A stretch of DNA of 64,000 bases from positions 14,136,001 through 14,200,000 of the forward strand of contig NC_073411.1 in NCBI RefSeq assembly GCF_028641065.1, given 5' to 3'. A program made the translations under genes and the position numbers. The notes beneath the pieces were generated by a model. It did not search any database and was not told where the DNA came from. It was given only the letters and a program-made list of their open reading frames with translations. This DNA is from Leucoraja erinacea (lineage: Eukaryota). Below are positions 1 to 63,913 of this stretch, in pieces; within the stretch, counting starts at the first letter, position 1; each line of letters starts with the position of its first letter.

Positions 1-544
1 GGTCGCGTAGAACGTGGCCTTTGGCATCTTCAATGTTCTGCCATTCAAGTAGACCTGGTAAATGGAGACAAGAATGGAATCTTGAAGGATCCCGATCCAA
101 ACATAGTCTGTTCATTCCCTCCACAGATGCTGCCTGACCCGCTGAGTTCTTCCAGCAATTTTCTGCTCCAACTTCGCTGACAGCCGAGCTCTAAAAACAC
201 CCTCATGGTCTTCCACCGAGGGCAGTTTCCAGAGGATCAGTTGCATATTCCCAGTAACGCCAGATGTTCCTTAGCAACACATCACGGTCAGGTGTGATGA
301 AGCTTCTGCGTGCCAGCCCTGGTCCATGGCCTTCTCTTCAGATATTGTCCTCTGGTCAATCACATGAAACATGGCAGATGGTCAATGACCTCAGGAGGGG
401 AAAGCTGATGATCCACAAACTTGTCTCCATTCATGGGGCAGTGGTGGAGAACGTTATGTTGCAAGTTCCTGGTTGTGCATGTCTCTGAAGGTCTGTCCTG
501 GGTCCAGCACATCAATGCAATCACACACAAAACTTATGACCACC

Positions 545-830
545 TCTAAGCTTTCGTAACATCCACAAAGGCGATGAACAATGGGGTTTGCTGCTCTTGA
601 CATTTTCCTTGTATTTGACACGGGGAGAAGATCATGTCCATTGTGGATCTACCTCCATGGAAACCGCATTGTGCCTCAGGTCAGAGAGTGCCTAAGGTCA
701 GCAGTCTTTGCAGGATCACTCTGGCAAAGGCCTTTCCTGTAACACTCAGAAGTGAGATGTCCCTGTAGTTGGTGCAGTCACTGTGATCTTGTACAGTGTG
801 ATGATGTTGGTGTTACGCATGTGTTACGCA
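545..830 (-). mobile_element. RTE-clade LINE RT relic (further pieces at about 5920-6060 and 7200-7350)
   Basis: Degenerate IITLYK..DC.NYR.ISLLS, QCGF..GRSTMDMIFS, GCPP.LL and LKAKTKV motifs. Confidence 0.65.
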
Positions 831-1495
831 GAAACTGCTCAATCCATCACAGGTGATGATCTCTTCACCATCAAAGGGATCTACAAGAGATGCTACCTGC
901 AAAAGGCAGCTAATATCAAAGACCCACACAAACCTACCAGTGTGAAAAGCCAACAGAAGCAGGGAAACTGACCACCATGTTTAAGATCAACTTCTTCCCA
1001 GCAATTACAAGCCTCTCGAACACTGCACAACATGAACCACAACAATGAGATATTATGGACTGTGTCTTTCGCTGCCCGACAGATGTTTTTTACACTAGAA
1101 TTTAATTATTAATTTCCTGGATTTTTATTTTATTAGTTACCTGTGTGTCGTTGCACTACGCTCCCATTATTTTGTTCAGAAGCCCAAAAAACGTGACCTC
1201 CAGGTTCAGGAACAGCTTCTTCCCAGCAACCACCAGGCTCTTGAACACTACCCAACACAAACCACATCTATGAATGAACTGTGAAGAACTGTGGACTGAG
1301 GTTTTGGTTGCATTACAGACATGTTTACAGTAGTATCGTGAGTATAAATTTACTGAAATGTAATTTAATGCATTTTTGTGTTGTTGCAATTACAGGCTTA
1401 TTAATCTGCACAAGATCAGCCATGATCATATTGAATGGCAGTGCAGGCTCGCAGGGCCGAATGGCCTACTCCTGCACCTATTTTCTATGTTTCTA

Positions 1496-1810
1496 CCCCT
1501 TCCCCCCCCTCCCTCTCCGGCTCCACAAAGCTCACTGCCCCCTCCCCCTCGACCTCCCCGCCCACACCCCCTCCCACACCTCCCTCCCTTCCCCACACCC
1601 CCCCACCCACACCCCCCCCCACACCACACATCCCCCCCCCCCCCCCACACCCTCCCCCTCCCCCACACCCCCCCCTACACACACACACACACACCCCCTC
1701 CCCACACCCCCCCCCTCCCTCCCACATCCCCCCCCCCTCCCACATACCCCCCCCCACCCACCCCTCCCCACACACACACCCCCCCCCCCCCCCCCCACCT
1801 ACACCCCTAT
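1496..1810. repeat. C/CA-rich low-complexity tract
   Basis: Runs of C interspersed with ACAC. Confidence 0.85.
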
Positions 1811-2600
1811 ATGGCTTATTTTTAAACTGTGGCCCCTGGTTCTGGACTCTCCCAACATTGGGAACATGTTTCCCATCTCTAGAGTGTCCAAACTCTTAAT
1901 AATCTTATATGTTTCAATAAGATCCCCTCTCATCTTTCTAAATTCTAGCGTATATACAGCAGCTCCATTCTCTCAGCATGACAGTCCCGCCATCCCGGGA
2001 ATTAACCTTGTAAACCTACACTGCACTCCCTCAATAGCAAGAATGTCCTTCCTCAAATTTGGAGAACAAAACTGCACACAATACTCCAGGTGTGGTCTCA
2101 CTAGGGCCCTGTACAACTGCAGAAGGACCTCTTTGCTCCTAGACACTCCTTTTGTTATGAAGGCCAACATGCCATTCGCTTTCTTCGCTGCCTGCTGTAC
2201 CTGCATGCTTACTTTCATTGACTGATGCACAAGGACCCCCCAGATCCCGTTGTACTTCCTCTTTTCCCAACTTGACACCATTTAGATAATAATCTGCCTT
2301 CCTGTTTTTGCTACCAAAGTGGATAACCTCACATTTATCCACATTAAACTGCATCTGCCTTGCACCTGCCCACTCACCCAACCTGTCCAAGTCACCCTGT
2401 ATCCTCCTCACAGTTCACACTGCCACCCAGCTTTGTGTCATCTGCAAATTTGCTAATGTTACTTGTAATCCCTTCACCTAAATCATTAATGTATATTGTA
2501 AATAGTTGCGGTCCCAGCACCGAGCTTTGCGGTACCACACTAGTCACTGCCTGCCATTCTGAAAGGGACCCGTTAATCCCTACTCTTTGTTTCCTGTCTA
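1811..2600 (-). mobile_element. CR1 (HER1-like) LINE RT fragment
   Basis: LYRALVRPHLEYCVQF, QFNVDKCEVIHFG and IQGDLDRL motifs; frameshifted. Confidence 0.9.
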
Positions 2601-3042
2601 TTACAGATGTGATGGTCTGCTTCCAGATTCAATCACCATCCAACTTTTCACTGGGATGGAATCAGTGAGTGTAGACTGAACTGTCCTTGCTTCAAAATGG
2701 GTGGGTGGGTATTTAGACCCAGTGGCCGGAGCAGGTGGTTGGCACTGGTACATTGGCCACATTGCATGTACCCAGTTGAAAAGCCCGCTGCCTCTGGGGG
2801 TTTGGAGAGACCATTGGAAGAGAGATCTGCCTCTGGGACAACTTGTGGGTAACAGTTTAGTTCACATGAGGAGCAGGCAGAACATTAGGGGTTCGAGTCC
2901 AACCCCTGGGGGCCCCTGTGTCACGTTTAGTTCAGAGATACAGTGCCCTTTGGCCCATCGAGTCCGCACTGACCAGCGATCCCACGCACAATAATCCCGC
3001 ACACGTTTGGGACAATTTATACATGTACCAAGCCTATCAACC

Positions 3043-3227: not shown

Positions 3228-5125
3228 TAGAAACATAGAAATTAGGTGCAGGAGTAGGCCATTCGGCCCTTCGAGCCTGCACCGCCATTCCATATGATCA
3301 TGGCTGATCATCCAACTCCGTATCCTGTACCTGCCTTCTCTCCATACCCTCTGATCCCTTTAGCCACAAGGGCCACATCTAACTCCCTCTTAAATATAGC
3401 CAATGAACTGTGTGGCCTCAACTACCTTCTGTGGCAGAGAGTTCCAGAGATTCACCACTCTCTGTGTGAAAAAAGTTTTTCTCATCTCGGTTTTAAAGGA
3501 TTTCCCCCTTATCCTTAAGCTGTGACCCCTTGTCCTGGACGTCCCCAACATCGGGAACAATCTTCCTGCATCTAGCCTGTCCAACCCCTTAAGAATTTTG
3601 TAAGGGATGTGAGGGGCGGGGGGGGCGAAGAATGGAACTGACTCCAGCATCTTCCCCACCACCGATGTCAGGCTAACTGGTCTATAATACTGTTTTCTTT
3701 CTCCTGTCTTTCTTAAAAAGTGTGATAACATTAGCTACCCTCCAATCCACAGGAACTGATCATGAATCTATAGAACATTGGAAAATTATCACCAATGCAT
3801 CCACAATTTCTAGAGCCACTTCCTTAAGTAACCTGGGATGCAGACCATCAGGCCCTGGGGATTTATCAAACTTTAGTCCCATCAGTCTATCCAACACCAT
3901 TTCCTGCCTAATGTGGATTTCCTTCAGTTCCTCAGTCACCCTAGATCCTCTGGCCACTGGTACATCAGGAAGATTGTTTGTGTCTTCCTTAGTGAAGACG
4001 GATCCAAAGTACCTGTTCAACTCATCTGCCATTTCCTTGTTTGGTCTTAACTATTTTTTGACTTTAGTCTTAACTAATTTTTTCCATCTTCACATACCTA
4101 AAGTAGCTTTTATTATCCTCCTTTATATTCTTGGCTAGCTTACCTTTGTACCTCATCTTTTCTCCCCGTATTGCCTTTTTAGTTATCTTCTGTTGCTCTT
4201 TAAACATTACCCAATCCTCTGGCTTCCTGCTCATCTTTGCTATGTTGTACTTCTATTTTATTTTTATACTGTCCCTGACTTCCCTACTGTCCCAGCCACG
4301 GTCGCCCCTTACTCCCTTTGGAATCTTTCTTCCTATTTGGAATGAACTGCACCTGCACCTTCTGTATTATTCCCAGAAATACCTGCCATTGTTGTTCAAC
4401 TGTCATCCCTGCTAGGGTATCTTTCCAGTCAACTTTATCCAGCTCCTCCCTCATGGCTCCATAGTCCCCTTTGTTCAACTCTAACACTGACACTTCCGAT
4501 CTACCCTTCTCCCTCTCAAATTGTAGATTAAAACTCATCATATTATGGTCACTATCTCCTAATGGTTCCTTTACCTCGAGTTCCCTTTAACAAATCCGGT
4601 TCATTGCGCAACACTAAATCCAGAAGTGCCTTCTCCCTGGTAGGCTCCAGTACAAGCTGCTCTAAGAATCCCACGGAGGAACTCCACAAACTCCCTTTCT
4701 TGGGGTCCAGTACCAACCTGATTTTCCCAATCTACCTGCATGTTGAAATCTCCCATAACAACTGTAGTATTATCTTTACGACATGTCAATTTTAACTCTT
4801 GTTTCAACTTGCACCCTATATCCAGGCTACTATTTGGGGGCCTGTAGATGTCCTATTAGGGATTTTTTACCGTTCCTCAGTTCTATCCATACTGACTCTA
4901 CATTTCCTGATTCTATGTCACCCCAAGCAAGGGACTGAATATCATTCCTCACCAACAGAGCTACCCCACCCCCTCTACCCACCTGCCTGTCTTTTTGGTC
5001 GGATGTATATCCTTGAATATTCAGTTCCCAGCCCCGGTCCTCTTGCAGCCATGTCTCTGTAGTTCCCACAACATCATACTTGCCAATGTCTAACTGAGCC
5101 TCAAGCTCGTCCACTTTATTTCTTT
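3228..5125 (-). mobile_element. CR1 LINE fragments (3' end plus APE/linker/RT start)
   Basis: YRPVSLTSVVGK, KSPGPDGLHPR, MGDFN and GTTETWL motifs; 3' tail ending in TTTCTATGTTTCTA. Confidence 0.9.
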
Positions 5126-5128
5126 ATT

Positions 5129-5700
5129 TCCCCCCCCCCCCGTCCCTAGACCCCTCTGCCACCCTCCACCACACCCCCCCCTCTCCCACACATACCCCTT
5201 CCCCACACCCCATCAACACACCCCCCCCTCCTCTCCTCCCTCCCACACAACACACCCCCCCCGCGCCCCTCCCCACACATACCGCTCCCCCACACCCCAT
5301 CAACACACCCCCTCCTCTCCCTCCCCCCACACCAACACACCCCCCCTCTCCCACACATACCCCTTCCCCACACCCCACCCCCTCCTCTCCATCCCACACA
5401 CCCCCCCGTTCCCCCTCCCCCACACCAACACACACCCCCCCTCTCCCACATACCCCTCCCCCACACCCCCCCCTCTCCCTCCCACACCACACACCCCCCC
5501 CTCCCTCCCCCACCCCCCCTCTCCATCTCCCACACACCCCTCCACCAATACTCCGCCTCCCTCCCACACACAACCCCCCTCCCTCCCCACGCATACCACT
5601 CCCCCACCCTCCCTCCCCCGCACCCCCTCTTCCACCCTCCCCACCCACCCTCTCCGGCTCCACAACGCTCGCTGCCCTCCCCCCCCCCCTCCCCGCATCC
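5129..5700. repeat. C/CA-rich low-complexity tract with internal repeats
   Basis: Repeated CCCACACATACCCC / CCCCACACC blocks. Confidence 0.85.
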
Positions 5701-6064
5701 CGGCAACTCAACAACCCTGCACTTGGGAAATGTCACCAAACCTGGCCTCTGTGTCCACTATCTCAATCTACTACTGTTATACACTTGTACCGTATCTGAG
5801 ATGCTTATTTAAGATTTGTCATAGTGATTATGTATGGTGATACATGTATTAAACTGTATACAGAAAACATTTTCACTTTAGCTCAGTATGACTAATAAAG
5901 AACCATTGGACATTTCTTACCTTGGTCTTGGCTTTCAGCGTTGCTAGAATGAAGAGGCTCCTGTCGCTTCTAGTGTGAAGATTCGCTCCTGTGTCAGTCG
6001 ACAAGACAGAGGACAGATAGGAAGATGCCAAACAGCATGGGAGCTGGGACACAACCTTGCTTCA

Positions 6065-9325: not shown

Positions 9326-9989
9326 TCCCCCCCCCCCCCCCCCCCCCCCGTCTTGAAGGATCACGATCCAAAACGTCGGCTGTCCATTCCCTCCACAGAT
9401 GCTGCCTGACCCGCTGAGTTCCTACAGCTCTTTCTCTTCTTACCGAGGAGATTGAAGCTCACCGATCTCAGACAAGATCTCGGTGTGGAAGCACATCTCG
9501 GTCGCGGTCTCCCTCCCACGGCATAGTCTTCAAGGCTGCTCGTCCAGGGGCGCTGGATCTACTCGGAGCCAACTTGACCTGTAGATGTTTGTGCGGAGCT
9601 GGACTTGCGGGGACTTAGCGCCGGTGAGTGTAACCGCGAACACCATCAATGGAGCAAAATGACACAAGAAAGAGACTCCCCTCCCTCACCCCCCTTCATA
9701 CTCACCCCTCGACCCTCTGGACAGGGAGGGTGGGAAGGAAGGATTGACCCCTGAGGGGATATTTTATTAAATTGGGGGAGAGGGGCGATGTCTTTGGTCT
9801 TGACCCTTGGTCTTGTCCGGAACGCAGACCCGGTCCGTCCGGTGAAGCCTCGCTGACCAGTGGGATGACCATGGCGATGGGCTGTGTGTCTTGAAGGATC
9901 GCGCCGCTGTCCGCTCGTCGTGGGGTCACGCGTCGAGGTTCTTCTCCGGCCATCGTCCACGGACACTGTGGACGCTGCCTGGACAGCGC

Positions 9990-10230: not shown

Positions 10231-10429
10231 GGACACTGAGGGAAATGAGGGACATTTGAGGAAGATTTTAATGGCCATTGGTCACTGACATCGGATGGAA
10301 GCTGCATACCAATTCTCGTTGCACTTATGTACAATGACAATAAAATATATTATTATTATTATTATGATTATTAGGGAATGAAGGACACTGAGAGTCAGTT
10401 GGTCACTAGGGACTTCCAGACTGGGGGGT

Positions 10430-11870
10430 CATTGAGGGAGCACCGGACACTGACCGATGTTGAGGGACTGAGGGACACTTGAATGATGAGGGACATTGAG
10501 CGGATGAGGGACGTTGAGGGGCATTGAGGGGATGAGGGGCATTGAGAGGATGAGAGGGACATTGAGGGGACATTGAGGGGATGAGGGGCATTGAGGGGGA
10601 TGAGGGGCATTGAGGGGATGAGGGGCATTGAGGGGATGAGGGGCATTGATTGAGGGGATGAGGGGCATTGAGGGATGAGGAACATTGAGGGGGCATTGAG
10701 GGGATGAGGGACATTGAGGGGGAGGGGGGACATTGAGGGGATGAGGGGCATTGAGGGGATGAGGGGCATGAGGGGGCGATTGAGAGGATGAGGGGCATTG
10801 AGGGGATGAGGGGCATTGAGAGGGGCATTGAGAGGGGCATTGAGAGGATGAGGGGCATTGAGGGATGAGGGGAACATTGAGGGGGCATTGAGGGGATGAG
10901 GGACATTGAGGGGATGAGGGGTCATTGAGGGGATGAGGGGACATTGAGGGGGGATGAGGGGACATTGAGGGGATGAGGGGCATTGAGGGGATGAGGGGAC
11001 ATTGAGGGGATGAGGGACATTGAGGGGATGAGGGGCATTGAGGGGATGAGGGGCATTGAGGGGATGAGGGGCATTGAGGGGATGAGGGGCATTGAGGGGG
11101 CATGAGGGGAGGGACATTGAGGGGATGAGGGACATTGAGGGGATGAGGGGACATTGAGGGGATGAGGGACATTGAGGGGATGAGGGACATTGAGGGGATG
11201 AGGGGCATTGAGGGGCATTGAGGGGCATTGAGGGGCATTGAGGGACATTGAGGGGACATTGAGGGCATTGAGGGATGAGGGGCATTGAGAGGATGAGGGG
11301 CATTGAGGGGATGAGGGGCATTGAGAGGATGAGGGGCATTGAGAGGATGAGGGGCATTGAGGGGATGAGGGGCATTGAGAGGATGAGGAACATTGAGGGG
11401 GCATTGAGGGGTTGAGGGACATTGAGGGGATGAGGGGTCATTGAGGGGATGAGGGACATTGAGGGGATGAGGGGACATTGAGGGGATGAGGGGCATTGAG
11501 TGGATGAGGGGACATTGAGGGGATGAGGGACATTGAGGGGATGAGGCACATTGAGGGGATGAGGGGACATTGAGGGGATGAGGCACATTGAGGGGATGAG
11601 GGGACATTGAGGGGATGAGGGGACATTGAGGAGATGAGGGACATTGAGGAGATGAGGGACATTGAGGGGATGAGGGACATTGAGGGGATGAGGGACATTG
11701 AGGGGATGAGGGACATTGAGGGGATGAGGCACATTGAGGGGATGAGGGGACATTGAGGGGACATGGAGGGGATGAGGGACATTGAGGAGATGAGGGACAT
11801 TGAGGGGATGAGGGGACATTGAGGGGATGAGGGACATTGAGGGGATGAGGGACATTGAGGGGATGAGGGA
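10430..11870. repeat. G-rich minisatellite, unit about 18-19 bp (GACATTGAGGGGATGAGG)
   Basis: Dozens of tandem copies with a degenerate 9-bp sub-periodicity; degenerate flanks out to about 10235 and 12010. Confidence 0.95.
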
Positions 11871-12319
11871 CTGCTGCTTATTGAGTGTCTGGTGGATGCT
11901 GAGGGAATGAGGACACTGAGGGAATGAGGCACGCTGAGGTGATGAGGGGCACCGAGGAACTGCGGGACAGACGATGCTGAGGGATTTAGGGACATTGAGG
12001 GGGTGAGGGGCCAACTCCCGAGGGTGACCCCTCGCACAAGGGAAGGTCCACACTCCCAGGGGGCAACATGAGTTCAGGGAAAAAAGGAGATGTTGGTACT
12101 ACTGCGTATAACACCAGCAATATTGGTTTATACCCAAAGAACCGCAGATGCCGGTTTACAAAACAAGATACAAAGTACTGGAGTAACACAACCGGTCAAT
12201 CTACAATAAAAGTGCAGAGTGAGAAGGAGTTATTGCTCCGTCTGGTGGTGTAGATGCGTGTACCTTTTCGCCTCACAGCAGCAGGGAGAAGAAGGAATGA
12301 CCAGTCTGTTTGTTAAATT

Positions 12320-13060: not shown

Positions 13061-13081
13061 TGCCTAACCTGCTGAGTTACT

Positions 13082-13387: not shown

Positions 13388-13692
13388 GCTGGAGTGACAT
13401 ATGGGGGGTTTTTTTGGTCACCATCTAAGAAATAGATACACAAGAAACTGCAAATGCTGGAATCTGAAGAAGGGTCCTGACCCAAAACTGTCCATGTCTG
13501 TCCATTCCCACAGATGACCAAGATTTAAAAAAAAATCTCTTTCTGCTGACGTTGCCTGACTAGATTTTCCCCGGTAATTTTATATTTATTTTTTTCACAT
13601 TTCTAGCATTTGCAATTAATTCAAACTCTAATCAGTTTTGTGTTGGATGGGTGGCCAGTAAAATACAATCTTGGGTACACATACAGCGATTT

Positions 13693-13696: not shown

Positions 13697-13700
13697 CGTG

Positions 13701-13771
13701 TGCGCTGCCCGGGAATCGAACCCGGGTCGCAAGAATGGGAATCTTGCATGATACCACTACACCAGCAGCGC
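13701..13771 (-). tRNA. tRNA-Gly (anticodon CCC)
   Basis: GCGCTGCTGGTGTAGTGGTATCATGCAAGATT-CCC-ATTCTTGCGACCCGGGTTCGATTCCCGGGCAGCGCA; 7-bp acceptor stem, A and B boxes, complete cloverleaf. Confidence 0.97.
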
Positions 13772-15095: not shown

Positions 15096-15120
15096 CTCTG
15101 ATTGTGCCAATCACCTCTTT

Positions 15121-17345: not shown

Positions 17346-18040
17346 TCAGATCATATTATATGATTTTATTCCAAAAGAAAGAACATTCTGAGCATTTTAT
17401 ATTCTAGCATTAGTGCACTAGAGAATGTTTACCAAGACGTGAAGAGGCCTTTTTTCTGTTCTTGAAGCTTTCATAGTTTCTCCAATCAGCTTATGATTAG
17501 TCTTATGGCCTGCCATGAATGCAACATAATTTGAACTAGGTCATTTACACATCAAGGTTGTACTTCCAAACATCTTAAAGGCAGCTAACTGAACCGGAGC
17601 AGGCATTGCTCATGCATATTAGTTTTAATAGGTGTTAAAAACCAATATCAGGCAATTGGTCAAGAAATCATACCAGGAGAATGAGCTCAACCCTGTTATG
17701 AATTAATGTTTGAATAAATTTATTGGCCAAATATGTACATATACAAGGAATTTGCCTTGGTGCTCCGCTCGCAAGCAACAACACGACATACAGTAAACCA
17801 TTAAGAATAAAACATTAAAACTAAAACAGATTATTTATGATATTGAATGGCAGAGAAAGCTCATGGAGTTTTATGGATCTCTCCTATTTTCAATGCTCAA
17901 TTCAATTTTCCTGTGACTTCCTTCCAATGTCACCCTGCCTGCCATACTACTCCAATCACCCCCCCCCCCCCCCACACATATTTGAACATATCTAAACTTA
18001 ACCGCACAACCGCCTCCCCCATCTCCAAAACATGCTCCTG

Positions 18041-18223
18041 CATGTGTACGAAAGAACTGCAGATGGTGGTTTAAATCGAAGGCTGACACAAAATGCTGGA
18101 GTAACTCAGCGGGTGAGAGAGCATCTCTGGAGAGAAGGAATGGGTGATGTTTCTGGTCGAGACCCTTCTACAGACTCCATAGATGCTGCCTCACCCACTG
18201 AGTTACGCCAACAATTTGTGTCT
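18041..18223. mobile_element. Inverted pair of short Penelope-derived repeats with TSD
   Basis: Minus-strand copy followed by a plus-strand partial copy; flanking direct repeat ACATGCTCCTG at 18030-18040 and 18224-18234. Confidence 0.75.
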
Positions 18224-21200
18224 ACATGCTCCTGTATGATCTAAAGCAGGAGAATTAGAATGCCCAAGACCAAAGCCTGTTCTGCATTGTTCTTGGTAAA
18301 ACAATAAACCATATTTGTTGGTCAATATTTCACAAAGTTCCAGATTTTCCTTATATCCCCAAGCCCCCTTGGAAGTCTTGCACTAGTAAATATCAAGGTC
18401 AGAGTTAATGAAAGATGTAAATCAAAACATGAGGTGCTGTTATGTTTCCAGAGACTCAGCAGATGTACGTGGCCTCTTTCGATAGAACATAATTTCTGAT
18501 TTTATTTGGCATAAACTAATTTATTTCTGATGCATAGCAATCAATTGCTTTAAATGAGTTTTAGGTTTGTAAATCTAGTGCAGAATTTGGGAGAACCCTG
18601 TTTAACAAAATGGTGAGAATTTCGCATCTGCAGCAAAGGACATGTGGGAAGAAAAAAAGGGAGGGGGGAAAGTGGGATGGGGGTCTGGGAGCATAAAACT
18701 CCATTAGGGACCATTTCAGTCAAATGGTTTATTTTAGTGTGATTCTATACATCGTGAATCATCCATAAAGGCTTCCAGAGCCGATGTATTTTGTTACTCC
18801 TCCATGTACCTTGAAGGTGTTTGCAAGGTGTCTGGGGGCAAATTGTTTCATATCATTTGAGCCATATCATAAATTAAGTATAAGACAAGAGACTACAATG
18901 AAGTACAAGACAGTGAGAACAAATATTTGTTGATTGCTTTATTTGGCATTAGAAGACAAAAGTTTTTTTTATTGTAGTAGGGTGAAACCATACAGATTTG
19001 AATGATTTTTGTGCAGTGGAACTTTTCCAGTGACCAGTTGATTTTCACATTTAATAAGACCACTATGAGCATGCTGCAATTCCATGGAGATGGATTTTAT
19101 ACCTGTCTTCTTTCACAGCTTAAGGCAATTCCTCTGCGATTAATTCCATAGCTGTTCTTTGCACGCCATAAGATGCATCATGCATTGCAGTCTCAAAAGA
19201 TTATTACAAGTTAATAACATGTTCCTCTCTTCACTTTTTAGCTCAATGACTCCTTGAAGTTTTACACTTTTAGAAATACATTATACAACATTTCTTTCTA
19301 ATTATTTGGCTTATTTGGAATTTTTCTCATCTTCGCATAAATGTTAATCTTATATATAGCAGCAATACATTGATAACAGTCCTGAATATTTATCCTCAAG
19401 GAAAATGTTTTTTGTTAGACCAGGAAGAGAAATTAAAAAGCCACAATCCTAATAGAGTCGGGTATTTTACAAACAAATTTTAGCAGCAAAACTAAACAAA
19501 AGGAGGAGAGTCTAGATGTGTTGGGAGTCAAGAGAACAAAGTACATAGATCCTGTTCAGGCTCTGCATTTGATATCTGGAATTTTGAGAGATTAAAGTTT
19601 ATATCCATGGGAAATTGGCTGTCCAGATTACATGTGGAATAATGTAACAATAACATTCCATAGGACCATATCACACATGTGTATTTACTTTTGCTTCAAT
19701 GGCGGGGGGCTGCCTTCTGCCACATGTGGTGGCAGGCAGAAGATAGGACTGTTCAGTGAACTTGGCGCCAGAAACGTGGCGACACTTGTGTACCGCCGAG
19801 GTGAGGTCTGCTATATGATTTTACTGGGTTGTATGCGAAACATTGCATGTCACTGTACCTTGGTAAGTGTGACAACAACATATCATTGATTTATTTAAAC
19901 TCTCCACACAAGGTGATTGGCAACTTTTTTTCACCTCTTCGTAGTGCCTCATCATATTTTTGCAATTCCTCTTCTGGATTATTTTGATTAATATTTTGTG
20001 TTTAAGGTGAAAGATATTAATATTGGGGAATTCTCCAACAAAAGATTGAAATTACTTAAGTCATAGTCCCCATTACAATCTCCTTACCTCATCCCAACAT
20101 TCTACTGTATTTGTCTGAAATCAAACTAAACTGATTGCACCTCTGTAACATTAGATTTGGCTGGCATCCCACTCTGGAATTCCTCAACGAAGCCTGTCTA
20201 CATCTTTTACCTCCTTTACGATGTTCCTTAAATCTACTATTGTGACTAAGCCGTTGGTAATTTCTCCTTAATCTTTGTGTGGCTCAACAGTGTCTTTGTT
20301 GTTGGATAACAATGCCGTGACCTTTGATGTCAGTCTAAGTTAAAACCAACACTAACAAAGACTTGTCCCAAGCTGATCATTTTTTCTTCCCCCTGCTCCT
20401 GTCAGGCAGAAGATACAGATCCTTGAAAGTGTGCACCACCGGACTCAGGAACAGCTTCTGAATGGTTCTCCCATCTGCTAGGGCACTGTCCGATTCATCC
20501 TCTACCCTACTACAGACATTCGACTGTGGGTCTGCACCTGGTGCACTACAATGCTGAGAACTATACTCTGCACTCTGTATCTTCCTCATTGCTCTACCTA
20601 TTGTATTTGAGTTTGGCTTGGTTGTATTTATGTATAGTATTATCTGATTTGATTGGATACCATGCAACACAAAGCTTTTTACTGTACTTCAGTGTATGTG
20701 ACAATAGTGAACTAAACCTAATTGGAGAACATCAGTGCATATTAAACACTTAGGGCCAACAACAAATACTCTGATCAGATATAGCAAGGAGGCATACATG
20801 GAGTTCTTAGTATTCCAGCAATCAGTACATTTCCATCACTTTTTCTTTTCACTGTCTTGCAGAAGTTATGTGTAATTCTTATTTTTGTATGTGGTTTATG
20901 TGCCTGCGATGGTGCTGCAAGCAAGATTTTCATTGTACCTGTACCTCACTGTACTTGTGCATATGACTATGACCTCGACTTGACTTTGCAGCCTAGCCAA
21001 CCGTGGCTTGTCTGAAGGTAGAGGTTGCAAGGGAGAAGTGGAAGGGTCTGTTTCCTGAGCAAAACTCAAAGTGCTGGAGGAACTCGGCAAGTCAGGCAGC
21101 ATCTGTGGAGGGAATGGACAGACAATGTTTCGAGTCGGGACCCTTCTTCAGATCGGTCTGTTTCTTGCTTGCATTTATTAGAATCTATGTTGGGTTGTGC

Positions 21201-22232: not shown

Positions 22233-25200
22233 CTGAAAAATAAATCAAAATATTAAATTTGATTAAAACGTACAGATTTTTATATGGATTTCCCTTGGTT
22301 TAGGAGTAAAATATATTTTAATGATATCTGATACAAGCCTAGTAAATGTTTGATAGTAACAGATGATGCTTTCAGATTCACATCGTAATTCAAACAGAGA
22401 TGAACAGGGGAGCCAACTGGGGGGGCGGGTATTTGAATATGCCATACTTTCAAGAGAGAGTTAGATATAGCTCTTAGCGCTAAAGGAATCAAGGGATATG
22501 GGGAAAAGCAGGAACGGGGTCCTGATTTTAGATGATCAGCCATGGTCATATTGAATGGCGGTGCTGGCTCGAAGGCCCGAATGGCCTACTCCTGCAACTA
22601 TTTTTCTATGTTTCTATACTGCTTGAATAGGTCTATTTTTCAAATGGAAATTTCACAGATCAACAAAATAAAAGCAATTTGAATTAATCCAGGAATCTAA
22701 ATAAAGCATTTTTGACCGGTCTGAGTCTTGACTGATTCACCCACCTGCTTTTGTCCCCAACTCTATCCCTATCCCTCCCTCAGCACCATCTGCCCCATAT
22801 CCCTCCTTGGTCCATCTATTACCCACTGACCCTGTCTCACTCTTCCCTCTCGTCTCATTACACTGACAATCTTCCCTCTCCACGCTCCATAGTAATGCAT
22901 CTAAAACATCAACAGTTCCTCTCTCCCACAGATGCTGCTGAATTCGTTGAGTTCTTCTAGTAGTTTTTTTTCCCACAAAGCTCATTGCTTGTCTACCAAT
23001 AGCTATTAATATTTATTTTAATATCCCAGTAAATATGATTGCAACAAGCAAATTGTTTCACTGATCATATTGTAAAAGTAATTGGTTCTGGGACAACATC
23101 CACTGCATCTAGCACAGATTTTGTATATTATTTTAAGATTTGATCAAATTAAACATGAAACATCAGTGGATATTGGAATACCATTAATTTTTCCATTAAT
23201 TTCTTAACCATTCTGTTTATCAACATTCTTTTTGTAAAACTTGCATTTGTATAATTACTGCGTGAGAAACAGCTGGTTTGATTAATTAATTCACTGAGAC
23301 ATTCTTACAAAGTTGGCTTTTACCTATATGCAGCTATTTCAATGTCCAGTGCCATCTTGACATTGAGCAAATCTTGGTACTCCCTCAGGTGCTGAGTCAT
23401 TTCATTCTTAGTGGAATGCAGTGCATTTTGAAGTTCATTGATGGCTTCCTGTTGAAATTAAAAGAAACACAGTCAGGCCTTTAGTTTAATTATTTTGGTT
23501 TTTCACACCTACGTATGTGATTTGGCAACAGGTTAACAGCATTTGGCTGAGAACGCTTCTATCAAGGTGCCATTTCTATTCAAAATAAGAAGACTTGGCA
23601 GAGTTTCATTTGCGACCTATTAGCAAAGGGTTAAGATAGAAGCTGCATTTATGATGGAGTTTTCCCATTAGTGAAAGAAAAAAAGACTTGTGAATAGAAC
23701 CAATTTATATATTGAAGACAAAGCTTTAATTCCAAGGCAAGATGGCTGCATCATCAGGGTCCATGATGCAGTATCAAATGTATGTGATGTGTACTTTAAG
23801 TGTGCAATAAGACATCATCTATAATTGCAAAATATGCCATTAGAAGATGATGAGGTTTAAATTATGCACAGCCAAAGAGGACATTAGGACATGCAAGGTG
23901 GATTTTAAGGAATGTTTTAGAGGAGAAGAAATCAAGGGTTTAATTAAAGAGAAATGTTTGGTGCATTGAGTGCCCTGGAAGTGATGGGAGGCACAACAGT
24001 GCCATGACATCAAGAAAAGAGAGTAGAGGGGTGAGCTATTGGGTTAGATGTATTCATAGAGGTAGGACTGTAAAGTAAAGGGTCTGAGGGATGGGAGGCT
24101 GTTGTCTTGATGGTGAACCTTGCCGCTGAATACTTGGTGACTACCTGCAGGTTGTTGATCTCCGCATTGTGTCTGTCCTCCATATCCAGCATTTGCTTCT
24201 CTAGAGACTCGTTGGTGCATTTGACAGCTTCGATTTCAATGTTCCGTGATTGCAGTTGGCGCCGGTACTCGGTAATCTCCTCTTTGGCTGCTCGGGCAGC
24301 TTCGTTACCGCGGGCTGCATTCTCCGTGAAGTTGGCGAATTTTGATTTGTACCATTCTTCCGACGTCTGCTGGTTCTTTATGGCGATCACCTCATACTGG
24401 GACCTGATTTCTTTCAGAGCAGCTGTCAGATCCGGCTTGCTCACATCGACCTCCACTGTTACCTGGAGTTGGAGGTTAGATCGTAAATTGAGATTGCATG
24501 ACTTGGAAACATAAACCACTGCACCATTTTCCAATGGCGAGTTTTGCCTGAATGCAGCATTTTGACTGCAGTATGGAAAGTACATGCGTTGGCATATCCA
24601 GATTCAAATTAACATCAGGAGATAAACAACCAGACTCATCCTCCTAATGCACCCATCACTGACTCTAAACATTTTGATTCACATTGCAGTATTTGTTATG
24701 TTGTTAGATATTCTATAATTTAGACTCACTATTGTCTAATAACCAAATCTCACTCATGAGAATGGCTCATTGGCTGAACCTCCAGGAATCTATATAAAGC
24801 ATTTTTGACCGGTCTGAGTCTTGACTGCTTCACCCACCTGCTTTTGTCCCCCAACTCTATTCCTACCTCTCCCTCAGCACCATCTGCCCCATATTCCTCT
24901 TTGGTCCATCTATTACCCACTGACCCTGTGAATGGGCTGGAGGTTACCCAGGAGGACGGCATTACAAAATGGATGCAGGAGCATTGATGGTTCCTCGTCA
25001 TTCAATTGAAGGTGATCACAATGAGAATAATCTAATCCCAAACCTTTTCAGACAGCGAGTCCAATTCATATTAGCTAGCATTGTAACTCTGAATGTGTAG
25101 AAGAGTCTTGTTCATTTCTTATAAACAATGATTCAGACTGTATTTGGAATGACGGAGGGGAAAAAAAAAATCGCATTTTCGACAATATGAATCAACTCTA

Positions 25201-31485: not shown

Positions 31486-32228
31486 GTATTTAGACTGCTT
31501 CAGACTGGAAAAGGGTCTCGACTTGAAACATCATCTATTCCTTCTCTCCAGAGATGCTGCCTGTTCTGCTGAGTTACTCCACCATTTTGTGTCTACTCCC
31601 TCTGAAGATTACACCATCACCCCAGAGGAATTTTTCAGCCTCCCTGTTCTCCACCTGTGACTGTTTAGAGACTGTGATTGGCCGTCTTAAAATGTTTTAT
31701 GCATCAGTGGTTATAGACAGTATGTATTAGCATCATTGCACCAGCCAATGAGCTGCAGTAAGGATGGGATATTGCACATGAATAGTCTCACAGCGAACAG
31801 TCTCTTGTATTGCAGGCAAATTTGACCTACCCAGAAAAACAGAAGAAACAGAATGCAGCAACCTCTCCCAATAAAAGCAGGGAAATGTCTCCAGTTGAGG
31901 AGAGTGACCCTACAAATGACATGCTTAAAAGCCACTGCCAGCAGTGCTTAGTTAATAGAGAAATTACCTAATCATTTCCAGTATGGCTGGGAATATCACT
32001 TAAAGATACAGAGCCATCTTAAAACTCACTCCATCACCCATTCCAATGCATGACAGTGGTAACAAATAATTGTTTCTTTTAAATGCAAAAAAAACTGCAT
32101 AAGTTAGTACTGGAAATGATTAGGTATTTTCTCTATTAAAGTCGATGAGTTATCACTTGGGAATGCCATGTATTTGCTGAAGAGCAGCGTTGTACTCTCT
32201 GGTGCCTGCAGGCTGACAGGGATAGTGC

Positions 32229-56111
<23,883 letters not shown>

Positions 56112-59100
56112 TCAGCAACAACCGAGGCAACTTGAGCGAAACATCTCTGGCAGGTACATCAACTCCATGGCTGCGTCCACTTCTGAATTTTCAACAAACC
56201 CAGCTGAAACCAGACATGTTTGGAGATAAATACATCAACAAAACATAGTCGTGAATCTCAAGCAGATATCCACTTGGAGGTGACAGAAAAATATCATCTC
56301 CGGGTCCTGACTGCGCGGTTTGCACGAGTGCTCTCAGCTCAGCGCAACTGCACATTCGAGCCTGCGGCCGGAAGAGACCAACTCACATCGACATGCAACG
56401 AGCGACGCATTTCTGACACACGGCGTTAAAATATACACAGTTCTCCAGAATGGAACTTCATCCCCCCTCTAATGCACGTGTTCAACCCCAAACAGCTCAA
56501 CTTAAAACAAACTGGCAGCAATTCACATTCAACTGAATATATTTTAACGATAATAACAGGTTTCCCCCACCCCCTCCTTTAAGTTGCAATTACTGATGGC
56601 CCCTTGGGTGGCTCCGGTTGAGTTTGGCGTTCAAGGGTTTTCACACGAATCGGTCCCAAAGTGTAATTAATGTTCACAAAAGCTGGGCTTGTGTGTGCAA
56701 CGGGGCGAGTTGGGTACACTTGGTTCAATGGTACTTTATTGTCACGTGTACAGTGAAATCCCTCTTTTGCATACAATAGACAATATGTACAGGAGTAGAC
56801 CATTCGGCCCTTCGAGCCAGCACTGCCATTCAATGATCATCCACAATCAGTATCCCGTTCCTGCCTTCTCCCCATATCCATTGACTCCGCTATCTTTAAG
56901 AGCTCTATCCAGGTCTCTCTTGAAAGTGTACAGTTCAATGGCAATCCTAATATATATTGGCACATGTATACTTAGTATGAGAGATAGTAAGATAGACCAC
57001 ACTGAGTATGCACACAAGAGTCCCCACGTTTTAGGCGGTCCCTTGTACCCTTCAAGTCCAAATTTTAAAAACATGTTAAAAAAGAGTCTTAACTTTGAAC
57101 CGCTGTTGTGAGCATCAGGTAACTCAAAGTTTAAAAGTTAAAACAATCTGCAGATGCTGGAAATCAGAAATAACAGCTGAAGATGCATGAAATATCATCA
57201 TCCTTATGGAGAGACAAACAGAATTTATGTTGGCCTCTAACAACTTTCACTGAACTGGGTGAAGTTCTAAGGCAAATGTGTTTGAGGTTGAGATATAGGC
57301 TAGGGGTGGAGAGTTTGTATTATTGATTGAAAGATACAGCGTGGAAACTAGCCCTTTGGCCCACCAAGTCCATGCTGACCATCGATCACCCATTCATACT
57401 ACTTGTTATTGCACGTTTCATCCACTCCCTACTCTTAAGGCATTTTGCATATTTTCCATTAATTTCTCCTGTACAGTCCGTCTATAACTCTTGTTCCTCT
57501 TTCCCCCGACTCTCATTCTGAAGAAGGGTCTTGACCCGAAACATCACCTATTCCTTTTCTCCAGCGATGCTACCTGTCTCACTGAGTTACTCCTTTTTTG
57601 TGTCTGCCTCCTCTTTAGTTTAACTGCACCAGCCTATTTACTTTCTTAGGCATCTGAGAAAATCCAGCATGGTCACGAGGATTCTCTCAAACTTCTGCAA
57701 GCACAAATAGTAACTTGGATAGGATATACCTTAGCCGGGTATGGAAGCTGCTGTGCTCTTGTCCATCAACAAGTGGTGAAGTCCATCACAGGCTTGTCAC
57801 ATGTCTTCTATGCAGTCCATCTCCTTGGTGTTTTGTATCAAAAAGGCTGGAAGTATTTTCAATTATGCCTGATTTCATGGCATTCCCATTCTCTCTTATG
57901 GTTCTATTTGAGGTCCACACATGCTCTCAAATAAATGCAGTGAATATACCTTCTGAAATATACAGGACCTTCTGTGCAGGGTATATGCACAAAATATGCA
58001 TATGTGCATATATGTGAACGTTTACAGATGAGAAATGTGAAAATTTACAGGTGAGAAATGCACATATTAGATATATGCACAAAATATTCATAAATGCACA
58101 TATCTAATATGTGATTTTCTCACCTGTAAACTTTCAAATTACATTTTTAAATCCAACTTAAAGATATGGGGTATGGGCACATGAAACAAACATCAGAGGA
58201 TTGTTAAATTTCTTTAATTTGATATTATACACACACCTGTTCAGGAAACTTCACAGTTAAATCAACTCTAAACAGAACAAAAAGCTGCATGAAGGTTTCA
58301 CAGTACATCTCTCAAGTTTACTTTCTTATCACATAAATTCAGTCAAAAGCAATGTCGTTTTTAAATGGAGACACAAAAGACTCCAATGCTGGAACCTTGA
58401 GCAAAAACAATCAAACTGCTGGAGGAATTCTGCAGGTCAGGCAGCATATGTGCAGGGAATGGACAGATTAATGTTTGGGTCAGGACCCTTCTTCATGCTG
58501 ATCTGTAAAAGTCTGAAAATAATTCTGACCTACCCATTCCATCCACAGATGCTGCCTGACCCACAGCACTTTGTATTTTGCATGGTTTATTAAACTGGCC
58601 TGTAACCACCGAGAGGCTTGTTTAGAGGTGGTAGGACCAGACATAATGTGGTTCAACGGTGGCAACAGGCAGTGCTGTCACCCAAGTTAGGACCACCACA
58701 CCCACTCATACAACAGCCCTTGAGCAAAGCAAAATTAACAACTGATTTAGCTTTTCCATGATTCAAGATATAAATTGTAGAAGGATCATAATTCTTTCAG
58801 AATAGCACAGCAGATTCTAAAATGAACTCCTCCATCCTAAATGTCCAATTGGTGCTTTTATTTTGGGTGGTGGGGTAGAACAGCAAACCAAAGACTGAGG
58901 TTTGGACAGCAGCAGATCCAACAGTTCAATCAATCAATGACACTATCAGAGCACTTACATTTTATCCAGTCACGCTGTGCCTACATGTGGGAAATATTCA
59001 AAACATTCTTACTGAGATTCAACAACAGAACTTCAATTTGAGGCAAGTTACAGTAAAACTCAGATAATGCATGAACCAAATAGTTGGAAGATAGACATAA

Positions 59101-59451
59101 AGTGCTAGAGTAACTCAGCAGGTCAGGCAGCATCTCTGGAGAAAAAGGATGGGTGACGTTTCGGTTCGGAACTCATCTTAATAGGTTATAGGAGCAGAAT
59201 CAGGCCATTCGGCCCATCGTCTACCCCGCCATTCAATCATGGCTGATCTATCTTTCCCTTTCAACCCCATTCTCCTGCCTTCTCTTCATTACCCCCGACA
59301 TCCATACCAATCAATTGGAAGTCTTCAGTTGGAAGTCACCTTGGTTTAACACTTTACTCTGTAGGTGAATTGGCTGCACTCCCTCTCAACACATTACGAC
59401 CTAGAACTTTTTGTGTTGGATTATTAATAGAAATAACATTAATATTTCTGA

Positions 59452-59667
59452 GGTCGACAAAAATGCTGGAGAAACTCAGTGGGTGAGGCAGCATCTATGG
59501 AGCGAAGGAAATAGGCGACGTTTCGTGCCGAGACCATCAGTCTGAAGAAGGGTCTCGACCCGAAATGTGGCCTTCCTTCACTCCATAGATGCTGCCTCAC
59601 CCGCTGAGTTTCTCCAGCATTTTTGTCTACCTTCGATTTTCCAGCGTCTGCAGTTCCTTCTTAAACA
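59452..59667. mobile_element. Inverted pair of short Penelope-derived repeats
   Basis: Minus copy about 59452-59535 and plus copy about 59536-59667 (TCTGAAGAAGGGTCTCGACCCGAAA at 59541). Confidence 0.75.
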
Positions 59668-61769
59668 TTTGGTATTCCTGAGAATCTGCCAATCCAACAC
59701 CAGAGTTATAAACACACAAGATTATCCGAGTTTTACTGCATGGATAAATAATAATCCTGGGATAGAAATCTTGGGAGGGGGAATTCTAAACCTCGAGTGT
59801 CTCCACCCCACACCCATCTGCAGCTCTAGCTGCGATGATGCTTCAAGGCACAGGAAAAAGGGAAGACACTCCTGTAATACTGCTCGATGCTTGGCATCTT
59901 TCCTGCTACCTCTTACCAGTCTGCTCCTCATTAACCTTCATTGAAATAGGTTTGAGCCAAAAAGGAAACAGTGAATGGACGAATCAAAGAACATTGGGTG
60001 CAAGCAGAATCTGCTGGTGCGACTGCTGGAGACAAACTGTGCAGCTCAGGCTGGGGGAAGGACTGGTCCAAGAACACGACAGAGAGAGGCGTTTATTAAT
60101 ATCTTGTAAAATGCAGTGCCATTTCCTGTCTACTATAGTGTACAATACCTTATACCACACATATTATTGGTGTGGCAGCATTTACATGACATTCTTCAAT
60201 CAGGCCTTGTATTTACCACACTTCCTGTGTACACTCCGCTCAGGAAATAACTGATGTGTGCCTGAGAGGCATAGGTTATTGTGCATTTAACGCCACTTTA
60301 TTAACGTCAGTTATTTATGAAAAGCACTGTTCATAGTTATCAGAACTGCTGTCAAGTTCTTTTGTTAATTTTTTGTAAATGCAGCTGATACGTTTGTCCA
60401 GGCTATTACACAAATTCCTAAAGCTACATTGAAAATTAACTTTGCTTCTCCCTCCACAGATGCCTGCATGACTTGCCAAGTTTTTCCAGCATTCTCTATT
60501 GTATTATAAGTATATTTTCTTGTCTGACTCCATTATTGTTAACCTTTAGCTAACATCCTTGCCCTGTTAGGGGGGCAGGTGCAGTGCCAAGTTTGTGTTC
60601 AGTCACATATCATACTGAGGCAATGACTTTGGTGGGGTCACTCTCTGACCTAGGCGATTCTGGAAGTAACTTCTCTTGATGGTAGAGATCAGTAGTCTTT
60701 ATATTTCCACAATGCAGCTGAGTTTAAGGTTGTTGATCTCTCTACTTAATGCACCCTTGCTACAACCTTTAACTTCAACCTGGTTCAGGGTCTTTACAGA
60801 ACGCAAAATGCTGTGGCAGCTTTCACTTATACTCTATAAAGCAAAGATGGTGACAAAACAATTTCAATATGTACTGCCATTTGCAAACTAGACTGGTTTA
60901 GTTAACAGATGAAAAATGTCACAGGCACATTTACAACAGCAAAAAAAGTTATTGAATAACATTATGATCATCAAAGCCACAGCACAAATTAACAGGGTGA
61001 CAGTGAAAATATCATCTGCTTCACGAGTCTGCTCCCACCCTTACCCTCATGGGTGGCGACAGAGACTGCAGGGGCACAGCAGCACACAGATTGACTTTGG
61101 AGCAACTAGTCACTCTTAGCCAGCCCCATCGATTTGGAGACAGGGGGTGAGAAGAGTGGAGAGGAAGAAAGAGAGAGAGAGGAATCAGCCAATTCTGCTA
61201 GTGGAGGGTGAAAAGGTAGAGGAAAAAGCAGGCAGCGGATGGGAAAATAGGAAAGGGGACATGGGAAAGAGGGAAGTATCTCAGGCTGCAGATTCTGCTC
61301 ACCACCCAACATTAGGTGACAAAGTGACCAGGCATTGGTAACAGAACATAGACACAAAAAGCTGGAGTAACTCAGTGGATAGTCTAGTACGTGACTGTGC
61401 TACCTCAGCAAGAGTCAGTGTCTAGATGAAATTATAGCAATTAAATTTTAGTCTACCGCCCCAGAATGATTTTCACTGTACAGCATGTGCGTTGTGAAAT
61501 GTAGTGCGGACTCTGCCGAGAGGTCGTAACCCCACCCTAGCTGTGCTTCCTGTTCCTGGACAACTGTTCATCTTTGCCACCGGCCTGCAGCAGCAGCTGA
61601 GGCCACCCTGCCTTTGCTCTGAAGCCTAGGGTCCACAGCTGTGTGTGAGCTGTAGTCTCTAGTCACTTGAGTGGGCTGCACTGGAATATTTGGTTCATTG
61701 CGACGGTCCTGCTTCGGTGCAGCAACTGCTCCTTAACCGAAAATTATGCTTCAGGGGCAAGGCATGGCT

Positions 61770-61958
61770 TTACTTTGCTATCGATCTTAACGAATCCTTC
61801 AGACCCTTGGTCATGCTTGGGATCAACACTGAATGATCATCCACACATTTAGTGACACAGAATTCTGCCTTCTGCTTGACGTCCTGCTCTTTCGCTCCTG
61901 AATCAAAGGCATCCTTTGCCCTGTCGTTGCAGTCCATCATGCACCTCTGCAGACGGTT
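61770..61958 (-). CDS. FAM136A: FAM136A coding exon 3
   Basis: 189 nt including TAA. Confidence 0.93.
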
Positions 61959-63913
61959 CTGTAAGAAGAGAGCAACTAGTCAGTCGGAAATACTTTCCCC
62001 TCCGTTGCCAACTCGAGAACGGGTGTTCAGTGTTGAGAAAGAATCACTCTTATGTATAGACAGACACAAAACGTTGGAGTAACTACGCGGGTCAGGCAGC
62101 ATCTCTGTAGAAAATGGATGTGACGTCCTGGGTCGGTACCCTTCTTCAGATGTCTGAAGGGACCCGACGCAAAATATCACCTATCCATTTTCTCCAGTCT
62201 GGTATCTCACTCTGGTGTCAAAGTTGTTTACCTAAGCATTATCTTGGTCTCCTCGCCCTGGATACCCCCAATCATAGTATCAAACTCTTTCTATCGAACC
62301 CACCTCATTCAATCATAATGTTCAACACCCTCGGTCAAGTCCCCTTTGCTCTAATGTAGGGAAACCCCCTTTTCCTTATTTACCTCAGCCAACCCCATCG
62401 ATTAGGAGACGGGGGTGAGAAGAGTGGAGAGGAAGAGAGAGCAGAATTCCTCAGGCAGTGAATCCGTGCCATATGCTGCCGATTGAATGAGGTGCCTATT
62501 CCCTTTGGCAGGAGAATGGGGTTAAGAGGGAAAAATTGATCAGCCATGATCGAATGGCGAAGCAGACGCGATGGGCCGAATGGCCTCATTCTGCTCCTGC
62601 ATCTTATGGTCTATGATTTTTCCCAGCCCAATCCACATGCGATCGTGATCCCACAAATCCTTCCCTTTTACACTGCCCATCTCTCCCCAAATCCAAAGCA
62701 GTTTATTTCATCAAATTCAATTCGCCAAACCTCTCCTCCCACTGACGTTACAGTGCAGTACAACTTCCCGAGTGATCTAAGAAATCCGTGTGGCCGGCAG
62801 TGTCTTGTCCTTACCTGGAACCTCTCCAGCTCTCCGGTGACCGCAGCCTGTGCCTTGGCGAGAGGGGTGTGGCACCGCTCGATACAATGATGAACCTCTT
62901 CCATGGACGAGTTGCCATTGTCGCAGCAGTCAGCACTGCACCGAAACATTCTTCCCTGTGGAGGCAAAGCAAACACACAGTGATATCATTCACTTATTCC
63001 CCACACCGCACATGTACCTCAAGGTACATCTCATCTGTTTGGTTTATTATTGTCACTTGTACCAAGGTTGTTGCATGCTATCCCGTCAGCGTGTTGGGAG
63101 AGCTACTGCCTTACAATGCCAGAGACCCAGGTTTGATCCCGACTACAGGTGCTGTCTGTACGGAGTTTGTACCTTCTCCCTGTGACCTACATGAGTTTTC
63201 GCAGAGATCTTCGGTTTCCTCACACACTCCAAAGACATAGTTTGTAGGTTAATTGGCTTGGTATAAAGGTAAAAAATTGTCCCTAGTGTGCGTAGGGTAG
63301 TGTTAGTGTGCGGGGATCACTGGTCGGTGCGGACTCGGTGGGCCGAAGGGCCTGTTTCCACGTTGTATCTCTAAACTAAACAAAACTATACATGGTTACA
63401 ATCAAGCCATCTACAGTGTACAGATACAGGTTAAAGGGAATAACGTTGTGTGAAGAAGCGCATAGTTAGAGTAAGGAATGCAGCTGTTAAAATATAGATT
63501 TAAAACAGGGGAGCCCCCACCCATGGGAGAGATCACCCCACCTACCCCACCCATGTAAAGGGGCACCTACTACACCCATGGGAGAGATCACCCCACCCAA
63601 GTGAGATCCCTACCCCACCCATGGGAGATCCCTACACCCATGGGAGATCCCTACCCCACCCATGGGAGACAGCATGCCCATCCCCTCCCACCCCACCTAT
63701 GACAGAGGACATCTAAGGGTGCCCGCGCTGCCCTTTGCCCTCTGTCCCTTTCACCTTGAGCCCGCCGCCATCGAGCGCGGCCCCACGGTCACCCCACCCC
63801 ACCCCACCCCGGCCCCGCACCTGCATCTTGCGGATCTGCTCCTTCTCCAGGCCCTGCACCATGGTGTCGACCGCCCGCTGTAGCCGGCGCTGCTGAGACT
63901 CGGCGCCCGCCAT
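61770..63913 (-). CDS. FAM136A: Protein FAM136A (140 aa, mitochondrial twin-CX3C-type protein)
   Basis: Exons 63913-63821 ([15 protein letters not shown]...IRKMQ), 62955-62815 ([11 protein letters not shown]...CIERCH...FQ), 61958-61770 ([16 protein letters not shown]...CVTKCVDDH...SIAK*). Conserved CX3C pattern; CpG-rich 5' end. Confidence 0.95.
62815..62955 (-). CDS. FAM136A: FAM136A coding exon 2
   Basis: 141 nt, CACAG|...|GTAAG. Confidence 0.93.
63090..63385 (+). mobile_element. HE1-type SINE in FAM136A intron 1
   Basis: Same head, core and tail. Confidence 0.8.
63515..63670. repeat. Short minisatellite (CCCATGGGAGATCCCTAC..., about 20-22 bp) in FAM136A intron 1
   Basis: About 6 imperfect copies. 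Confidence 0.75.
63821..63913 (-). CDS. FAM136A: FAM136A coding exon 1
   Basis: 93 nt, donor CAG|GTGCG. Confidence 0.9.

Follow-up and report, generated by a model that had tools for sequence, protein, structure and literature searches.

Short hammerhead-bearing repeats in the Leucoraja erinacea genome as probable truncated ends of Penelope-like elements

We analysed a 64,000-nucleotide stretch of the Leucoraja erinacea genome (contig NC_073411.1, positions 14,136,001 to 14,200,000; hereafter the window), in which a first-pass annotation had noticed short repeats carrying the core of a hammerhead ribozyme. These repeats are probably 5'-truncated terminal pieces, from the pseudo-long terminal repeat (pLTR), of autonomous and recently active Penelope-like elements (PLEs) of Neptune type. 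They would carry at their head the parent's minimal hammerhead, which likely depends on a partner RNA or a protein and is likely inert in most copies. That the repeats originate from PLE ends, whatever the state of the ribozyme, we regard as close to certain.

Copies in the window and across the genome

Window copies were called with a hidden Markov model (HMM) built from natural copies, using the reversed sequence as the control. The pervasiveness of the repeats was borne out: there were 34 copies in the window (0.53 per kb) and none in its reversed control, while 514 copies were called across 864 kb and none in the reversed 864 kb. The whole core was spanned by 18 of the 34 window copies. 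Five (37265+, 36602-, 42858+, 55559+ and 55081-) retained an undamaged core, with every core letter, all 4 bp of stem II and the palindrome, and the 2-bp helix I was also present in all of these except 42858. The eight cores listed in the first pass as at or near consensus lie within 0 to 3 nt of where they had been placed (55084- is really 55081-, and 21150- is really 21151-), but their description as near consensus fails for 57518 and 21151, which have lost the CG palindrome, and for 59542, which has lost both the palindrome and the cleavage triplet.

Copy numbers were then searched in the 2.19-Gb genome. Exact matches to the core pattern numbered 56,582 (control pattern, 0); a single 31-nt core variant had 10,833 matches and a 40-nt body of the youngest subfamily had 3,392, again with none for the controls. 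Cores were intact in 31 of 430 unselected copies, a set that excludes 84 selected cores. From this fraction the family would comprise roughly 0.8 million copies, and from copy density roughly 1.1 million, both extrapolated from a core-centred sample; by the same extrapolation element ends would make up roughly 4-5% of genome bases. Tens of thousands of copies retain an intact motif, whereas the majority are decayed and likely inert.

The parent element

Two loci outside the window carry the coding sequence of the parent. One (L014:2812-6757) contains a tandem unit of 3,945 nt in which about 440 codons of open frame lie upstream of a frame for reverse transcriptase (RT) and endonuclease, and in the other (L013) the RT-endonuclease frame is open for 802 aa. 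E-values of 1e-6 for RVT_1 and 0.007 for GIY-YIG were obtained with the 802-aa frame, each narrowly missing the curated Pfam cut-off. Both frames have a CX4CX2C linker before the endonuclease; a CX2-5CxxC linker marks the Neptune and Nematis PLEs (PMC8557442). Judged from sequence, the parent appears to be an autonomous RT and GIY-YIG element, of Neptune type by its linker. It shares with the endonuclease-bearing Neptune and Nematis PLEs (Craig et al. 2021, PMC8557442) the order RT then GIY-YIG, the linker, heavy 5' truncation, partial tandems, inverted 5' copies and a 30-40-bp tail often found at one end only, and differs from them in the extreme excess of copies of about 100 nt.

The parental loci had other features of their own. 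The first open reading frame (ORF1) has its ATG about 165 nt after C3 of the hammerhead. L013:885-6983 forms an inverted repeat of 6.1 kb, each arm carrying a near-complete RT-endonuclease region with an open frame of 801-802 aa. In L013, L014 and L015 a C-rich, proline-coding linker lies between the upstream and RT frames, and in it the reading frames differ among copies (a natural frameshift or an assembly error).

Among 48 hits to the endonuclease end, a core was present beyond the stop codon in 36, the distance being 86-384 nt with a single exception, and was not shown in the remaining 12. Itself constant, the core lies behind 3' untranslated regions (UTRs) that are unrelated in sequence among subfamilies; in several subfamilies it is therefore a fixed component of the terminal repeat. 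Identity to the parent is 98.7% in the youngest copies. Short copies share subfamily variants with long ones, in a truncation series that reaches endonuclease- and RT-coding sequence, and inserted copies are flanked by target duplications of about 10-17 bp. Old fragments of PLE coding sequence for the RT and linker were also seen in the window, at 52364-52432 and 53287-53526 (+).

A young insertion of the window (36512-37393; Table 1) had been described as a simple GIY-YIG-bearing PLE fragment ending in the core. The endonuclease end and the core are indeed present, but the insertion is head-to-head with two cores, and it keeps only the last ~70 endonuclease codons, without the GIY or YIG letters. 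Its arms are 424 nt each and 100% complementary; the left arm ends at +91 and is untailed, and the right arm ends at +128 with a 37-nt tail (positions counted from C3 = 0). At least 40 other genomic loci match 36937-37395 at 99-100% identity. The perfect 424-bp inverted repeat (36507-37360) lies within a kinase intron, so that long double-stranded RNA is expected in the pre-mRNA; it is a likely target of A-to-I editing.

Ends of the inserted copies

The 5' ends of 86 young arms were set by alignment, excluding 14 units of a tandem array (L136, below). Starts at -3 to -1 were found in 23 arms, against 0.9 expected, compared with 11 at 0 to +4 and two, both from one locus, at the cut site. The older set has a similar, less sharp 5' edge. 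No pile-up of 5' ends was seen at the cut site in 430 older copies, and none that was significant in the 86 young arms (P 0.22).

At the other end, copies stop at about +94 or +130, some 35 nt apart. Exactly one arm was tailed in 64 of 86 head-to-head pairs (p 2e-6), and where young loci had an inverted arm this held for 16 of 17. One-ended tails have already been described for endonuclease-bearing PLEs (PMC8557442). In the Poseidon element PAc of the green anole (Frangieh et al. 2024, PMC11167929) the tail equals the distance between two RT start sites, and both target strands are cut and extended. Our elements would resemble PAc in these two internal start sites and in the handling of both strands, and resemble it in a hammerhead just upstream of those sites and in the lack of RNA ends at the cut site. 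They differ in having a Neptune-type Cys linker and an ORF1 ATG well downstream of the core (that of PAc lies at stem II), and in the 5'-end pile-up before C3, of which the parts of that paper cited here make no mention.

A sharp modal 5' end together with fixed 3' ends defines a unit of 95 or 130 nt, and short copies greatly outnumber long ones in the old set. Both would suit an independent, SINE- or retrozyme-like non-autonomous family that has master copies of its own and relies on the PLE for mobilisation in trans, as the first-pass annotation had supposed. Retrozymes derive from pLTRs (10.64898/2026.07.22.740005), and one tandem array was found elsewhere in the genome: L136:3476-5948 (G000:C1:24092480-24094943) has 14 units arranged head-to-tail, 177-209 nt in length, which start at -3, -1, +21 or +31 and extend to about +208, and looks like the result of repeated RT jumps or a nascent retrozyme-like array. 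The type I hammerhead, the pLTR derivation and this array are what the repeats share with non-LTR retrozymes (PMC7229834; 10.64898/2026.07.22.740005), from which the window copies differ in that they lie scattered, as monomers or in inverted pairs, and have a minimal core. A tandem 170-400-nt array with a hammerhead in every unit, the hallmark of a retrozyme, was absent from the window, and full cores occur in only 3 of the 14 units of L136. Same-strand neighbours within 100 nt accompany only 28 of 514 hits of the older set. Moreover, 36 of the 86 young arms reach past -11, the longest as far as -2381, and enter the UTR and coding sequence; both +125 variants occur in short and long copies alike; and short-start units reach ORF1 (L114, L136 and L147). 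A separate family is therefore unlikely, and truncation of parental ends accounts better for the series.

Another possibility is that the start at -1 to -3 marks a 3' splice site (a pyrimidine tract and CAG|T), and that short copies come from spliced RNA or a splicing intermediate. In Drosophila virilis Penelope an intron ends at helix I (PMC4209133); in our elements a pyrimidine tract and TCAG precede the core in nearly all subfamilies, and GT overlaps many stops. On the other hand, several subfamilies lack a GT at the stop, and no GT..AG was present among the 15 best-supported joints in either RNA alignment (with 128 and 51 further joints); likewise, none of the best 15 joints of each RNA data set was a splice leading from the endonuclease stop into the core. 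UTR depth equalled endonuclease depth in two single-cell runs but was about tenfold lower in two bulk runs. The pile-up copies have no upstream exon in common, and 14 of the 23 arms extend to -2, which exceeds what a genuine end at -1 predicts (p 6e-5). Because of these last two observations an RNA end at -3 or -2 is favoured over a splice acceptor at -1, which we consider improbable. RNA reads of two related organisms (four runs, using 1-6 in 100 of each run's reads) showed mixed loose ends at -3/-2. Since the units of L114 and L136 run from -1/-3 to +208, and hence into ORF1, the RNA with the short start continues into that frame.

The hammerhead motif

The motif carries every core letter of the published minimal hammerhead, CUGANGA ... 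GAAA ... UH in type I order. An unpaired A stands between positions 9 and 10.1 in 222 of the 231 copies covering the column, and the G10.1-C11.1 pair closing helix II is G-C in 163 of 231 and G-U, through CpG decay, in 41. There is no helix III; in its place is a palindromic 15.2-16.2, most commonly CG (159), followed by its CpG decay products CA (73) and TG (35). A generic minimal hammerhead descriptor gave 83 hits, on which helix I was scored; it was 2 bp in 74 of them. A very short stem I had been raised as a caveat at the outset.

Metazoan PLE minimal hammerheads (Cervera and De la Pena 2014, PMC4209133) are alike in the core boxes, the extra nucleotide between 9 and 10.1, G10.1-C11.1, the palindromic 15.2-16.2, the position in the pLTR and the occurrence mostly as single copies or opposite-strand pairs tied to truncated PLEs. 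Helix II is 4 bp here as against 7-8 in Schistosoma and 6 in D. virilis, and helix I is as short as the 2 bp of D. virilis, as against 4-5 in Schistosoma (PMC4209133). The 56,582 cores compare with about 4,000 in coelacanth and 9,000 in Xenopus by a published descriptor, although the methods differ (PMC4209133). By its letters the motif fits a PLE minimal type I hammerhead of a kind already described, and the catch itself is ordinary; the first-pass account of it (PLE-derived, very high-copy, minimal type I, with a palindrome for stem III and an extra A) matches that literature.

Inserted copies show a different picture from that of their parents. Non-CpG mismatches affect 80 of 1,430 core positions (5.6%) and 311 of 4,602 body positions (6.8%; p 0.12), and G12, which lies in a CpG, is lost in 33 of 140 copies (24%) compared with 38 of 143 for a CpG of the body (27%; p 0.59). 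The core of inserted copies decays neutrally, indistinguishable from its flanks. The expected conservation above flanking positions is thus lacking in inserted copies, a result without bearing on the parents, where the core is constant across subfamilies with unrelated UTRs. In fold predictions the core of monomers is buried in a competing helix, with a stem II probability of at most 0.11 when the RNA starts at -3. In 12 of 15 folds this probability did not exceed 0.11, no fold gave more than 0.41, and the hammerhead fold lay 3.6-15 kcal/mol above the minimum. Monomers are accordingly predicted to misfold without forming stem II.

In published work, PLE hammerheads did not cleave as monomers and cleaved weakly as dimers (PMC4209133), whereas the homologous motif of the anole PLE cleaves with the element protein, the hammerhead being protein-assisted and dispensable for insertion in vitro (PMC11167929). 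The parent's hammerhead is likely to cut only with a partner RNA or element protein. We consider it probable that the parent has a functional hammerhead.

It had been suggested that the repeats seed introns with self-cleavage sites. Hammerheads active in host pre-mRNAs, cutting them or making small circles, could draw on the 56,582 complete cores, and the element is abundant in RNA reads of relatives, so that partners for the weak dimer cleavage seen in vitro (PMC4209133) exist. Against this stand the low fraction of intact cores, the absence of either a purifying or a disrupting signal on the core and the predicted folds. RNA reads from the four runs ran through the cut site without a pile-up of ends, though the libraries are poorly suited to show one. 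The 12 copies within the span of the kinase gene are evenly divided (six sense, six antisense). Both complete sense cores of this gene (36602 and 55081) belong to head-to-head pairs, in which the core can be engaged by pairing with the opposite arm. Efficient intronic cleavage in this gene is unlikely. Activity in host RNA is improbable, and the case for cleavage sites in introns is weak.

Least likely of all, and in our view very improbable, is conservation for a DNA-level role in the pLTR, as a promoter or a site of protein binding, with a motif that does no more than resemble a hammerhead: downstream blocks are as constant as the core, covariation is absent, helix I is only 2 bp and TCAGTC resembles an initiator. 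Yet the minimal hammerhead consensus is matched at each catalytic letter, at the extra nucleotide, at G10.1-C11.1 and in the palindrome; subfamilies differ naturally only in the loop, at one wobble-tolerant pair, at H17 (C/U) and at N1.1 (A/G opposite U); and the homologous anole motif cleaves (PMC11167929).

Other ribozyme and RNA candidates were set aside. Rfam microRNA hits and two weak hairpin-ribozyme hits were rejected as they come from inverted repeats, and an HDV-like fold starting at -2 was dropped by eye for want of P3 and P1.1. A near-perfect AT-rich hairpin at 58049-58125 scored weakly with several microRNA models and is probably a small inverted repeat.

A model for the short copies

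Our preferred reading of the ends is as follows. The endonuclease would cut both target strands, and RT would start inside the RNA at about +94 or +130, in some cases from one start site per strand to give inverted pairs. The element RNA would begin about 3 nt before the hammerhead, so that RT on such RNA runs off after 95-135 nt and yields very many short copies; the longer copies would be primed at a pLTR lying downstream. Insertion probably does not usually proceed by way of hammerhead cleavage. Run-off of RT at an RNA 5' end near -3 is somewhat favoured. The fuller version is more tentative, and we put it a little below even: the ribozyme would form the 5' end of the mRNA, where it could cut off a 31-nt capped leader as a switch, and internal priming followed by run-off would give a cDNA like a 'strong stop', often integrated one per cut strand.

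Several results weigh against the account given here. The 800 kb sampled around exact cores came from the first 23 Mb of a single contig, and the first 100 of 3,392 matches served as the young set. Compensatory pairs are negligible: stem II pair 3 is A-U in 3 of 252 copies, and changes are otherwise one-sided, between U-A and U.G. The stem II variation that had been noted as staying paired is of this one-sided kind, not compensatory, and the subfamilies are too close to show more. The generic descriptor found no other hammerhead family over 864 kb (0 control hits) and hence no distant family for covariation, and an Rfam scan of the window gave no hammerhead family even at E 10, nor did any other ribozyme model hit the copies. 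The hammerhead fold thus rests on the match to a known core. As for the RNA start, none of 30 ORF1-linked copies begins at -3 to -1, although 17 extend across these positions. If every template began at an ordinary transcription start at -3, several such copies would be expected, and this prediction failed; either the templates of long copies are different ones (read-through tandems or circles), or the end at -3 is something other than an ordinary transcription start. Finally, L146 (1950-2140) has three starts at the cut site, +28, and the long copy L193 starts there too, a hint, not significant (P 0.22), that cleaved RNA is sometimes used as a template.

Features of the window

The kinase gene, which from its PKK domain we take to be of the SLK/STK10 type, and the other features of the window are listed in Table 1. 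A G-rich tandem repeat with an 18-19-bp unit lies at 10417-11900, and two long C-rich low-complexity tracts lie at 1500-1820 and 5100-5750.

Table 1. Positions of repeat copies, parts of the young insertion and host genes in the window
Feature	Position	Strand	Remark
Young PLE insertion, two 5'-truncated arms head-to-head	36512..37393		2-nt microhomology near 36937
Target-site duplication, left, 14 bp	36498..36511	+
Target-site duplication, right, 14 bp	37394..37407	+
C-terminal ~70 codons and stop of parent GIY-YIG endonuclease	36937..37148	+	translation; tblastn 87% to parent ORF
Parent's 3' UTR, pyrimidine-rich	37149..37261	+	86-384 nt, different sequence in other subfamilies
AGT at -3..-1, helix I 5' strand (2 bp)	37262..37264	+	commonest start of short copies
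Complete minimal hammerhead core, C3 = 37265	37265..37292	+	predicted cut after 37292; antisense to host kinase
Conserved downstream stem-loop around first 3'-end site	37312..37379	+	fold; stem kept across subfamilies; likely RT-binding/initiation element
Tail, between 3'-end sites +91..95 and +128..131	37357..37393	+
Complete core of left arm, within 424-bp hairpin	36575..36602	-	sense to kinase pre-mRNA
Short copy, complete core	42857..42944	+	helix I broken
Short copy starting at -3, complete core	55554..55668	+	antisense in kinase intron
Head-to-head pair	54987..55168		complete core 55081-55054 (-), its GAAA and cut site able to pair with other arm
Head-to-head pair, one arm tailed	59442..59675		both cores broken
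Head-to-head pair, one arm tailed	18038..18229		core broken
Old head-to-head pair	58357..58596
Decayed single copies (span 84..62150), first set	84-161+, 7427-7484-, 9355-9440+, 12128-12198-, 13460-13575+, 17200-17346-, 21052-21157-		HMM
Decayed single copies, second set	22904-22968+, 25754-25873-, 29172-29263+, 31499-31598+, 37504-37619-, 48429-48527+, 49672-49816+, 53555-53643-		HMM
Decayed single copies, third set	54725-54815-, 54815-54884-, 57513-57623+, 59081-59179-, 60449-60499+, 61339-61378-, 62051-62150-		HMM
Protein kinase exons, PKK domain	56111-32200	-
Intermediate-filament gene exons	26542-24013	-
DUF842 frame	61979-61773	-
tRNA-Gly(CCC) gene	13700-13771	-

Significance for Penelope-like elements

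In the main texts of open-access papers we found no account of this family or of a 5' pile-up before C3. The sharp start before the hammerhead is a testable handle on what the PLE hammerhead does, and the rule of one tail per pair is another on how inverted and tailed ends form. As a very young family, these elements record the mechanism of transposition at base resolution. If the fuller version of the run-off model is true, a by-product of reverse transcription would explain near a million inserts of 95 or 130 nt and at least 56,000 intact cores, and the genome record would be a direct map of PLE RNA ends and two-site priming.

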